DNA of 64,000 nucleotides from Eledone cirrhosa (GCA_964016885.1 OZ024745.1:114638001-114702000), one strand, 5' to 3'. Positions 11,268 through 33,570 are shown, counted from the first letter of the stretch. Notes: a model not told the origin generated them from the letters alone. A program made the numbers and translations.

Positions 11268-11462
11268 AACGAAGGAATTGTGGTAAGGAACCAGATGGAT
11301 CATAACGCACCAGAGTACTCAATACTTAGGGTAGTAGAGTGGGTAATAGGAAAAAGTATGACCCCGACGGCAGAGCTCAAGCCGTTTCGACGGCTATTTC
11401 TGGAGTCCAGAAATAGCCGTCGAAACGGCTTGAGCTCTGCCGTCGGGGTCATACTTTTCCTA
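11268..11462 (-). mobile_element. Snap-back palindromic element in (TA)n carrying the 3' half of a hammerhead (family G, copy 1)
   Basis: Perfect ~55-bp arms around ctggagtccag. Contains GAAAC-ggc...gcc-GTC-ggggtcat. A ~80-bp unique tail ends in (TA)n. Confidence 0.85.
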
Positions 11463-11574
11463 TATATATATATATATATATATATATATATATGTGTATT
11501 TTTTTTTTGTGGTGCAATTTAGAGATAGACATATTCTATGAAAAACATAGAGCTGTCAGGTTTGATTAATTTTG

Positions 11575-11748
11575 CAGTATTTCTTCTGGCTCTTTACATT
11601 CTGAATTCAAATCCTGCCGAGGTCAACTTTGCATTTCATCCTTCCGGAGTCGATAAAATAAAATACCAGTCATTTACTGCGGTTGATTCAATCAACTTTG
11701 CCCTGCCCCCAAATTTGCTGAAATTGTGCCTAAATTAGAAACCAATAT
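11575..11748 (+). mobile_element. SINE family 1, diverged
   Basis: gaattcaaatcctgccgaggtcaactttgcatttcatcc core. Confidence 0.8.
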
Positions 11749-12580
11749 AGTTGTTGCTACTGCTGCTGCCAGTGTTGTTGTTGTTGCTGTTGCAGTTGTT
11801 GTTTAGCCATGACTATCTCGTCTTTTTAGGCAGTATATCTAGGACTGCATTCATTATCCAATGAACCATTCCTGTTTTAAGACTATATTGAGAAAGATGT
11901 GGCTTATATTTATAGCAGGTCAAGTAAGCACGTAGATGTTTACTTGCTAGTTTGTTTCGTTAATATATTAAATAAGAAATAAAAGAAACTTGTTGCTTAG
12001 TAACAAAGAAAAAAAAAAAAGAAAAAAAATCAATTTTTCTAATCTAAATCATTAAAACATATTCCCTGCTGATATAATTCTTAGAATGGGATTCGCTCTT
12101 ATGCTTCCACTGCTCGAATAATTAACGAGAGACAGATTGGAGCCAACAAAATACCACTACGCGGTCGCGCACTTGCTGAAAATAACAGTTAAATTTATAT
12201 CTTAAACTCTTAAACTAGATATGTTGAACAGTTCAACTTTGATTATAACATGTCTGGAAACACGATAAGCTAGTTACGCCAGTCGGACGATAAAACTTTG
12301 TTACAGAAAACTATAGTAGCTAAACACCTAACTACCATGCAGAATATGCAAATGATAGCTTCGGACGAAAATCATCTCGAAAGATTATCTCCATTTCGAG
12401 ATTCGTAGTCATGCACTTAATATAAACAACTTATTTTTAAAAAAGCACTTCTTACATAAAATATACAGCAAAAACCAAAGTAACCATGCACAATACATAA
12501 ACAAAACACAACAAATAGTATATTGCAATACAACACTAACGGTCAAAAAAGATCTCTGTAGGTGTTGGAAGCAGCCATTA

Positions 12581-12750
12581 ATAATTGTTTCTATTTTAGG
12601 CACAAGGCCGCAATTACCCAGTACATTACTGGTACTTTATTTTATCGACCCCGTAAGGATGAAAGGCAAAGTTAACCTCAGCGGGATTTGAACTCAGAAT
12701 GGCAAGGGCCGTAACTCTATGCGTCAAAGCATGGTGTCCGACTCTCTACC
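12581..12750 (-). mobile_element. SINE family 1
   Basis: Matches the array monomer in reverse. Confidence 0.88.
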
Positions 12751-12923
12751 ATTCATGAGCTCGGTTGGTCTTGCTTGGGGATCCAGCCGGATCAATTGGA
12801 GACGGTTGTTTCTGATAGGAACCTCTGCAAGGTGTGTCTGAGAAGAAGAAGAAGAAGAAGAAGAAGAAGAAGAAGAAGAAGAAGAAGAAGAAGAAGAAGA
12901 AGAAGAAGAAGAAGAAGAAGAAG
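12751..12923 (+). mobile_element. RTE-like LINE 3' end with (GAA)n tail
   Basis: catgagctcggttggtcttgcttggggatcc...caattggagac matches 45398-45460, followed by (GAA)n. Confidence 0.7.
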
Positions 12924-13932
12924 TCATGGTGATAATCATTACTATTCACATCAGAATTCTGAGTTCAAATGCCACCGGTGTTGTATTTGCTTTTCGACCC
13001 ACAGAAATGAATAGAGTAAAAAGCATACACCAGAGGACCAGTACCTATTTGTAGCCCTGTACCAATGTAAAAAGTCGTTAGTCCTCTCATAGAGTTCTGG
13101 ATTATTAACGAGTCTAACACAAAATTATTTGCTCGAATTAAATATTTGGTATGAATTTGAAACGTCCTGGAACCTTTTAATAGTCACTAAGCTTCATTGT
13201 CCAACAAAATTACCTTTAATTGATGCACATCTTCTTATAGTCAAAATAAGGCTTTCTTCCCTGAATCACAAAAAGGTTATTGTATTCCAAATACAACCAT
13301 ACGAAATCATGCGCCCGTGTGTATGTGGGGAGTAGCGGTGTGTGTGTGTGTGCAAGTGTACCCCTTCCCCTCTCTCTCTCTCTCTTTCTTTCTCTCTCTC
13401 TCTTAGAACAGGTATATCTGCATATGACGGTTTTCATATCCCAACTTGGATAAACTTGAAACCAACTTGGATAATCTTGTCCAAACATTCGTTTAAATAA
13501 TTTGAAAACTAAAATAATAATCCTCTTATATTGAGACATCTGTCATTTCTTTCCTTCTTTCTTTTCCCCGAGAAAACATATATTGGCAACAAATTAATGA
13601 TTGTATAGGAAATCGATATCGACAAATATTAATAACAGGACGTCTTTATTTGATAAATGGGAACGGGCTGGGTGGGTGAGAGGTGAGAGAAGGACTTGTA
13701 TATCGAAGAGAACAGAAGTCCTATGATTAGTACCATTGGGGGAATAGCCAAGACGATAAATATAGAAAAATATTCTTCGTTAAGGATTGAAAAAACACAC
13801 GGTGACCTACTAACAACGAGACGAATTAATAAGAAAAAAATGTTTGAACGAATTTCATTAAAACAATTTAAATGTACTAATGAAACTGTATAATTGTCCA
13901 TAATCTTTATTTATTTTTTTAATATTCTCAAT

Positions 13933-14075
13933 AGGCAGCGAATTAGCAAAGTCATTAGAACGTCGGGTAGAATGATTTCTATGTATTCGTTCCGGCTCTC
14001 CCTGCCGAGATCAACTTTGCTTTTCATCAATCCGAGGTCGATAAAAAAGTACCAGTCCAGTACCGGGGTCGATTC
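13933..14075 (+). mobile_element. SINE family 1, diverged
   Basis: gagatcaactttgcttttcatc...gaggtcgataaaaaagtaccag. Confidence 0.7.
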
Positions 14076-14338
14076 TTCCTCTTACCGCGTCCTCTCTCTC
14101 TCTCTCTCTCTCTCTCTCTCTCTCTCTCTCTCTCTCTCTCTCTCTCTCTCTCTCTTTTCTGGAGAAAAATAAGCTGTGTTCCACCATATGGGTACATGCA
14201 TACATTGGTAGCTGATTTTTGCTATATTGATAACTGTACTTATTATATCGATAACTGTATTACTGATATATTGGTAAATGAATAGTCGCTATATTGATAG
14301 CTATATAGAAAAAAAAAACATTAATTTCTTTTAACAAT

Positions 14339-31647: not shown

Positions 31648-31665
31648 TTAGATAGATAGATAGAT

Positions 31666-31990
31666 ATGTTTCTTTATTAGCCACAGGGGCACAAAAGAAG
31701 GGGACAAATACAAAGGGGGAAGTTTACATACAATAAAAACGTGTAAAATGTTATCACAAATACAATTTAAAAATTAGTCGATTTTCCCCAATAGGGGGAG
31801 ACATTACATATGGGTAACACATACCCTCGAAAAAAAAATGTGCAACCCTCATCTCCAGGAGTACGAAGAGTTTGTACTCCTTTCCTCACCTCCTCTTTTT
31901 CCTCAACCTACAGGCTGATATAGAGAGAAGGCCCATTCACTCGGGCCATTCTCGCCACTTTCACCCACCTTTCATAAAACTTGCTGGGGG
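31666..31990 (-). mobile_element. Tx1/L1-like LINE 3' fragment D (same subfamily as A)
   Basis: 3' UTR nearly identical to 28690-29010. Confidence 0.88.
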
Positions 31991-32025
31991 TAGATACATT
32001 TCTTAGACAGATAGATAGATAGATA

Positions 32026-32171
32026 TATTTCTTTATTTGCCACAAGGGCACACAAGAAAAGGGGACAATACAAAGACACATGCCGGGGATTTTACATACA
32101 GTCGTGTAAAAATATTGAAACAAACAATTACAACAATCGAAATCCCCAATAGGGGGGAAGCGCCACAAATG
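32026..32171 (-). mobile_element. Tx1/L1-like LINE 3' fragment E (same subfamily as B)
   Basis: Nearly identical to 29998-30141. (GATA)n flanks. Confidence 0.88.
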
Positions 32172-32405
32172 GATAGATAGATAGATAGATAGATAGATAG
32201 ATAGATAGATAGATAGATAGGTAAGGAGGAAGGCTATCTTCATGACTCATTGAAGTAACATCTAAGGTACGTTATTTCCCCTAATATCCACACTGAGACC
32301 ATGTTTCCACAACGTAAAGCTAAGAATATTGTTGCTTTCTAAATTTTGGATTTCACGCGTGACTGATGGTCGAATAGGCGTGGGTGGGCTTTCTCTCTTT
32401 AATAT

Positions 32406-32995
32406 CACACACACACACCACATACACCACACCACACACATACACACCACACACACACACACCACACACACATCACACACACACACACACACCACACACA
32501 CACACATACCACACACATCACGCACACACCACACCACACACATCACACACACACACATCACACACACACCACACACACACCCACACACTACACACCACAC
32601 ACACTACACACCATACACACACACCACACACACACACACCACACACCACACACACCACACACCACACACCACACACACCACACACACCCACACACCACAC
32701 ACCACACACCACCACACACCACACACACCACACACCACCACACACCACACACACCACACACCGCACACACCACACACCACACACTACACACCACACACAC
32801 TACACACCATACACACACACCACACACCACACACCACACACACACACACACCACACACCACACACACACACCACACACCACACACACATACACACACCAC
32901 ACACATACACACACCACACACACACACACCACACACACACACACACCACACAACCACACACCACACACTACACACACCACACACCACACATACGC
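32406..32995. repeat. Complex CA/CACCA low-complexity tract
   Basis: Direct reading. Source of the HT-rich ORFs. Confidence 0.95.
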
Positions 32996-33376
32996 ACGAC
33001 ACAAACATACATGAATGTATGTGTCGGTATGTGTATGTACGTACCTATATATATATACCTGTATATGCGTGCCTATGTTTGTGTGTAAGTATGTGTGTAT
33101 GTATATATATATATATATATATATATATATATATATATATATACATACACACACATATATATATATATATATATGTGTGTGTGTATGTATATATATATAT
33201 ATATATACATATGTGTGTATGTGTATATATATATATACATATGTGTGTGTGTGTGTGTGTACGTACCTATATACATATATAGGTACGAACACACATACCT
33301 GTATGTTTCCGCATGCCTATGTTTGTGTGTAAGTATATGTGTATGTAAGTGTGTATATATATATATATATATATAT

Positions 33377-33570
33377 AACGAAGGAAATGTGGCAAGGAAC
33401 CAGATGGACCATAACGCACCAAAGTACTCAATACTTAGGGTAAGTAGAGTGGGTAATAGGAACGAGTAGGACCCCGACGGCTGAGCTCAAGCCGTTTCGA
33501 CGGCTAATTCTGGACTGAATTAACCGTCGAAACGGCTTGAGCTCAGCCGTCGGGGTCCTACTCGTTCCTA
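33377..33570 (-). mobile_element. Family G palindromic element, copy 4
   Basis: Both arms share the variant aacgagtaggacc. (TA)n flanks. Confidence 0.85.

Follow-up and report, generated by a model that had tools for sequence, protein, structure and literature searches.

Family G is a set of short palindromes lying in (TA)n runs within a 64,000-nt stretch of the Eledone cirrhosa genome (GCA_964016885.1 OZ024745.1:114638001-114702000; below, the window, whose positions serve as coordinates), and these palindromes are 3' remnants, that is 5'-truncated ends, of a 3.6-kb endonuclease-positive (EN+) Penelope-like element (PLE), a retrotransposon that inserts in (TA)n. With a probability that we put at roughly 70%, each of them arose when both strands of the target primed reverse transcription of one RNA at two fixed starts, the two cDNAs ran off the RNA, and their ends were joined head to head. 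The palindrome centres likely record the run-off points of the two cDNAs, either at the start of the RNA or at a ribozyme cut. In each full copy, an inverted short arm that stops at TTCC|TA is joined to a long arm whose 80-nt tail stops at TTCG(T/C)|TA. An earlier note made from the sequence of the window had described four full copies and one half copy in (TA)n, all of which we found; it had correctly read the arms as the GAAAC strand of a hammerhead ribozyme, stem III, GUC and GGGGTC, and was also right that the short arm ends at a fixed TTCC|TA. The mechanism it proposed was a different one, in which nascent cDNA folds back on the stem II hairpin, primes itself and rejoins the target at a TA microhomology.

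The parent is a Penelope-like element with a variant hammerhead

Shared upstream sequence continues from 6 of the 30 best matches to family G, and following it led to a full element at locus L083, where a 3,631-nt unit lies between two copies of a pseudo-long terminal repeat (pseudo-LTR, pLTR) and is preceded by an inverted truncated copy. The combination of a partial tandem pLTR, an inverted 5'-truncated copy and a one-ended tail is present at this locus and at L067 and L086. The parent has one open reading frame (ORF) starting at +232 (counted from the position +1 introduced below) with the YRDD motif of reverse transcriptase (RT). A structural model of the ORF product (pLDDT 80.7) gave TERT in all of the top five Foldseek matches (E ~1e-8), while searches with the parent ORF returned no Pfam family and no PDB sequence. 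The C-terminal GIY-YIG endonuclease (EN) was recognized in translations as a motif, VIY...YIG...FKTRLYQH, without a profile or fold match for the domain.

Family G copies carry DKT, the CxCX5C linker and, in the EN, CxxC and CxH, and they have no CCHH; among 120 homologues, CxCX5CP occurs in 112, CxxC in 114 and CxH in 114, and none has two Cys between GIY and YIG. Together with the (TA)n target, in which all five copies in the window lie, these features would fit the Hydra clade of C-terminal-EN PLEs, for which PMC8557442 describes DKT, the CxCX5C linker, the lack of CCHH, CxxC and CxH around the EN E and N, insertion in (TA)n, a hammerhead near the 3' end and an inverted 5'-truncated copy. 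Family G differs from that clade in having RWR in place of RWK, in its length of 3.63 kb where most units are below 3 kb, in its 9-nt loop III, ~40-nt loop II and 80-nt tail against the usual 30-40, and in its ribozyme core; all Hydra hammerheads listed there have CUGANGA, and that of family G is not the listed Hydra-1_oBim one. Pattern searches of the 3.0-Gb genome gave at least 19,534 short ends, at least 11,360 short palindromes with a centre of at most 30 nt and 4,297 arms that keep the core UUGANAA, with no match to the reversed pattern in any of the three cases.

As the earlier note had predicted, half a hammerhead is lost from the palindromes and the missing half is present in a parent that is not palindromic, in L083 and in the 4,297 arms keeping the core. 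The parent hammerhead reads ACCCC-UUGANAA-G..CGGCUA-(loop)-UAGCCG.C-GAAA-stem III-GUC|GGGGU, with the three stems around core positions 3-9, the GAAA and the NUH of a type I hammerhead, and with U3-A8 in place of C3-G8. The note had expected CTGANGA in the parent. This core gave 42 matches, fewer than the rough chance figure of ~200 for ~27,000 arms, and those inspected proved to be inserts at junctions, inverted arms that had mutated, or other elements; none was a parent. Among 84 arms, from loci of which some were chosen by the core pattern, U3 is conserved in 79, U4 in 83, G5 in 81, A6 in 83, A8 in 80 and A9 in 84, and position 7 takes all four bases. In the hammerhead alignment, 92.3% of cells are paired, compared with 32-54% for slid partners. 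U3-A8 is a described natural hammerhead variant, shared, along with a short stem I and the G10.1-C11.1 pair, by the minimal hammerheads of the Schistosoma Cercyon PLE (PMC4209133); these are of the dimer type, whereas family G has a full stem III of 5-6 bp and could fold as a monomer. A scan of the window against Rfam gave 148 matches at E up to 1, and the hammerhead was not among them. Upstream of stem I, GGAA pairs with the short-end TTCC in 93% of cells (alignment A1 columns 2-5 with 119-122), which would place the first presumed RT start at the base of an extended stem I.

Each insertion forms its palindrome afresh

The 114 short palindromes have 97 distinct centres, and of the 91 pairs that could be assigned, 87 have both arms of the same subfamily (0.22 expected), which supports the earlier proposal that the palindrome is made anew at each insertion and is not inherited. 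Per 46 nt, the arms of one copy show 1.47 differences, copies of the same subfamily 1.44 and any copies 4.01 (101 of the 114 pairs, those without indels). In the suggested comparison of arm-to-arm with copy-to-copy divergence, the arms match by subfamily and are no closer to each other than same-subfamily copies are. Variants that had been taken for copy-specific are subfamily markers, and only 8 non-consensus bases are mirrored between arms against 102 unmirrored. Gene conversion between arms was considered and rejected, as the arms are no closer than same-subfamily copies. The 114 centres comprise 56 with insertions, 41 near-blunt and 17 with at least 2 nt of microhomology, and they look like end joining; 10 of 26 insertions of at least 6 nt beat shuffles as templated, and the remainder did not.

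Spread of the palindrome as a unit like a miniature inverted-repeat transposable element (MITE), or an assembly artefact, is highly improbable. Its high copy number, its TA flanks and the similar length of most copies speak for such an origin, but the number of distinct centres refutes it, the ends are asymmetric with no inherited interior between symmetric terminal repeats, the arms form a continuous range of lengths up to 4.4 kb, reaching into the RT-EN ORF, and the same three ends recur in separately assembled contigs (possibly from the same sample).

At eight loci (L026, L032, L035, L040, L045, L046, L049 and L056), family G arms are joined at about +1 to other repeat pieces, several of them hammerhead-bearing and one an antisense GIY-YIG stretch. 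These joins may represent the capture of other templates at the centre junction.

Arm ends mark two putative RT starts and a putative transcription start

A single offset accounts for the ends of 181 of 209 short arms, and another for those of at least 141 of 175 long arms, in a sample partly chosen by those very ends. The two fixed 3' ends, +58 and +138, lie 80 nt apart and are both followed by TAT in the parent; on the interpretation given in PMC11167929, they would be RT start sites. At the other side, 134 of 169 arms end within a 12-nt window, +8 to -4, at the A of an initiator-like TYAGT in loop II, and the remaining ends comprise 18 that are shorter, 10 between -5 and the core and 7 that reach the core, in a count whose loci were chosen by the short end and which cannot see arms shorter than the GAAAC strand. 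The earlier note had placed the turn on the stem II hairpin; it sits in loop II instead, 5' of the stem II 3' strand by ~12 nt. We take TYAGT to resemble an initiator, and TATTTA at about -30 to resemble TATA. Contig depth, from two sequencing runs of unspecified kind that were separately assembled and possibly come from the same sample, is 2-4 million over +1 to +138, ~150,000 just upstream, about tenfold lower, and 2,000-11,000 across the ORF; loose contig ends occur at +1, +58 and +138.

Among arms that stop at the +1 A, a non-parental G precedes it in 28 of 35, compared with 28 of 155 at neighbouring stops (p 5e-12, C and T being masked as parental). Genome-wide, with the commonest opposite-arm join left out, the base before +1 is G in 4,518 cases and A in 872; the extra G also occurs where an arm abuts (TA)n and, at some centres, in the two arms alike. 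Among arms that continue past +1, G stands there only 4 times (three in one cluster) and A 6 times across the genome, indicating that the extra G is not a parent variant. An extra G at full-length LINE-1 5' junctions, a feature shared by family G, marks a copied cap (PMC11702581), and by this analogy the extra G has a cap-like signature. We infer that +1 is a capped transcription start inside the ribozyme. A splice acceptor at this boundary was rejected on the end positions, with 15 arms ending after AG and 48 and 35 ending one and two bases further.

A minor class begins at the predicted ribozyme cut

In a minor class of palindromes, both arms start at +42, the predicted cut of the hammerhead. 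Locus L073 is a palindrome centred on this cut and L086 has a unit-length arm starting at it; both arms start at +42 in ~30 of the first 100 of 985 matches (by eye) and in 7 of 20 fetched loci. Among the first 100 of 382 matches of a search with an open centre, 19 are blunt at the cut and ~25 have 1-7 added bases (by eye), in none do both arms end a base to either side of it, and in 6 one of the arms is shorter by a base. In 53 copies the cut-site arms are separated by just one base, A or T, and the class comprises these 53 exact cases and ~150-300 in all. Such junctions suggest cleavage in vivo. This class is the more surprising part of the result, because in PMC11167929 no RNA reads end at the cut site of the Anolis Poseidon element PAc, whereas genomic copies of family G do end at the cut. 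Mixed cases number 2 of 93, against 4.6-10 expected if the arms stopped independently, and we infer that both cDNAs derive from one RNA.

Cut-site palindromes are mostly found in two subfamilies (TTACTGG and TTACTTG), unlike the start-site class; cutting or upstream transcription may vary among subfamilies.

Two primed cDNAs or one folded cDNA

The arm that reaches further in the 114 palindromes is the short one in 35, the long one in 58 and neither in 21. As fold-back of a tailed cDNA needs a long arm at least as long as the short arm, the 35 cases favour twin priming, and in 4 of 18 long loci (L067, L070, L081 and L086) the short arm exceeds the long one by 1.1-3.2 kb and in one case contains the whole ORF. 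Self-priming, in which the cDNA 3' end folds back, copies itself and joins the target at TA, with later deletions of the centre producing the longer short arms, would account for the shared subfamily of the arms, for the excess of longer long arms and for the 2-4 nt of inverted microhomology at 17 of the 114 centres, as in copies 2 and 4 of the window. Nevertheless, we consider it unlikely: the short end stays fixed whatever the arm length, although kb-long arms pass many longer TA matches that a chance microhomology join could have used, junction types occur as mirror images in both directions, non-consensus bases are mostly unmirrored, and insertions at the centre outnumber microhomologies. 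Self-priming, proposed with an antisense template in PMC3846280, is further opposed by the cap-like G and the cut-site ends, which mark the sense strand as the template. The arm lengths, the end-joining type of the centres, the fixed short end and the in vitro data of PMC11167929 argue for twin priming over self-priming on an antisense template.

Slightly less probable again is twin priming with a boundary set by an RT stop at RNA structure or by a splice acceptor (YAG), and with a stall at the stem III hairpin in place of cutting at +42. A pyrimidine run ending CAG/TAG does precede the boundary and a 6-bp hairpin ends two bases before +42, but the ends are commonest on the two bases of AG themselves, not after it, no shared upstream exon was seen, and the extra G at +1 and the joint stop of both arms at +42 with an added A or T argue against this explanation.

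Several points weigh against our preferred reading, that of two cDNAs run off one capped or cut RNA. The long arm reaches further more often than the short arm (p 0.02), so the two ends are not symmetric, and loss of palindrome centres after insertion, the chief way in which fold-back might be upheld, could mimic the cases of a longer short arm. Another 65 arms run 1-4 nt past +1, in part by chance and in part possibly through a spread of starts, and the opposite arm can supply part of the G excess. For the blunt CCCC|GGGG, an alternative is a join one base earlier through 2 nt (CG) of microhomology, an ambiguity from which the cut-site palindromes with insertions are free. The coupling of both arms to one RNA is modest, resting on the 2 mixed cases in 93, with P from 0.16 to 0.002 depending on the assumed class size. 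As for the hammerhead itself, 25 close sequences show no two-sided compensatory change despite 92% paired cells, and in single-sequence folding (z -0.17 to -2.29) 3 of 4 sequences did not outdo shuffles.

Proposed mechanism

In the mechanism that we propose, the (TA)n target would be cut and both strands would prime reverse transcription, which would begin at the two fixed sites, +58 and +138, on one RNA; both cDNAs would run off the RNA 5' end, and repair would join the cDNA ends head to head. An RNA begun in the pLTR at +1 would be capped and lack the UUGANAA core, and hence could not be cut at that copy. RNAs beginning further upstream would carry the whole ribozyme and would sometimes be cut, the 3' product then being copied, and arms of hundreds to thousands of bases would come from read-through templates. 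In LINE-1 twin priming, two target ends prime cDNA and the product is inverted; there the site of the second priming varies and there is no overlap between the pieces, whereas in family G both starts are fixed and the same stretch is copied twice, yielding a palindrome.

In the in vitro work of PMC11167929, a Penelope enzyme cuts the two strands and extends each of them, two start sites define the tail, and a dimer is predicted. PAc, the element of that work, shares with family G the two tail-defining RT starts 3' of the hammerhead cut, the AT-rich target and the cutting and extension of both strands; its starts lie in the ORF without target homology, whereas those of family G lie 5' of the first long-ORF ATG with TAT after both. 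The inverted pLTRs of Adineta vaga Penelope elements (PMC3846280) share the head-to-head palindromes, the tail on one inverted arm and the TATA/Inr-like motifs in the pLTR; self-priming on an antisense template was proposed for them, whereas the family G junctions favour a capped sense template and two primers.

More tentatively, the promoter may lie within the element's own ribozyme. With the start in loop II, the 5' copy could not cut and the 3' copy could, the RNA would have a 41-nt terminal repeat, RT starting near the 5' end would make a strong-stop cDNA that must jump to this repeat to copy the ORF, as in LTR elements, and the palindromes, the bulk of all insertions, would each consist of two strong-stop cDNAs for which the jump had failed. 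We regard this as possible and, on balance, doubtful. A cap scar at the jump found no support genome-wide (the 4 G and 6 A in arms running through +1), so the long arms may simply come from read-through RNA. At L217 (1051-1770), three tandem units of about +1 to +257 lie in one insertion, which suggests that a short RNA was copied repeatedly or in a circle and shows that jumps at +1 can occur. If true, the strong-stop reading would provide a function for Penelope hammerheads and explain the pLTR, the tail and the inversion together.

The architecture is already known, and family G is a variant family with a junction record bearing on three questions given as open in PMC8557442, PMC3846280 and PMC11167929: the origin of the inverted ends and the one-sided tail, the RNA strand that is copied, and hammerhead cutting in vivo. 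A literature search confined to open-licence texts found no paper giving this junction evidence for the mechanism. The ~20,000 junctions of one family amount to a fossil record of template 5' ends, indicative of a sense RNA that carries a cap, of priming at two fixed sites in each insertion and of a U3-A8 ribozyme that cuts now and then. The same junction count is applicable to other Penelope families, and in annotation such palindromes are to be treated as retrotransposon ends, not as MITEs or hairpin-RNA genes.

Family G copies and other palindromes in the window

The edges of the five copies lie 1-2 nt inside those given in the earlier note (Table 1). The short arm of copy 1 begins at the presumed +1 A (11404) with a G before it. 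Copy 2 is joined at a self-complementary 4-nt GTAC; its hammerhead half, with the predicted cut at 15295/15296, pairs with the 5' half of the parent. The centre insertion of copy 3 repeats 9 nt of the arm, copy 4 has a 4-nt ATTC/GAAT match at its centre, and the solo short arm has a small duplication near its short end.

Table 1 Family G features in the window
Feature	Position	Strand	Composition	Arms about the centre
Copy 1	11269-11460		Long arm and 80-nt tail on - (11269 to ~11404); short arm on + (11404-11460)	53 nt, 0 mismatches (11352-11458)
Copy 2 (L001)	15203-15392		Inverted short arm 15203-15257; long arm with tail 15258-15392	58 nt, 0 mismatches (15200-15315)
Hammerhead 3' half, copy 2	15267-15300	+	Stem II 3' strand, GAAA, stem III, GUC, stem I 3' strand (predicted from sequence)	
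80-nt tail, copy 2	15313-15392	+	Between fixed ends +58 and +138	
Copy 3	16819-17018		Inverted short arm, 10-nt centre insertion, long arm with tail	64 nt, 3 mismatches, 2 of them central (16817-16944)
Solo short arm	21353-21433	-	Joined at ~+3 straight to (TA)n	
Copy 4	33378-33568		Long arm with tail on -; short arm on +	58 nt, 3 mismatches, 2 of them central (33456-33571)

A second family of the same build, with an inverted short arm, a tailed long arm and TA flanks, occurs at 6740-7243 and 42206-42620; its turn lies ~65 nt upstream of a minimal CUGAUGA hammerhead that is intact, the ribozyme is kept in both arms, and at 6626-6861 two tails are opposed across a TA run. The palindrome at 19905-20008, with CTGATGA in both arms and ends in (TA)n, probably belongs to a third Penelope family. 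More CTGATGA/CTGACGA hammerhead-like motifs adjoin TA runs at 14996-15140 and 1600-1800, the former being partly palindromic and having a tail-like stretch in common with family G. Finally, an imperfect palindrome of 560 nt at 41547-42107 is formed by an unrelated repeat.

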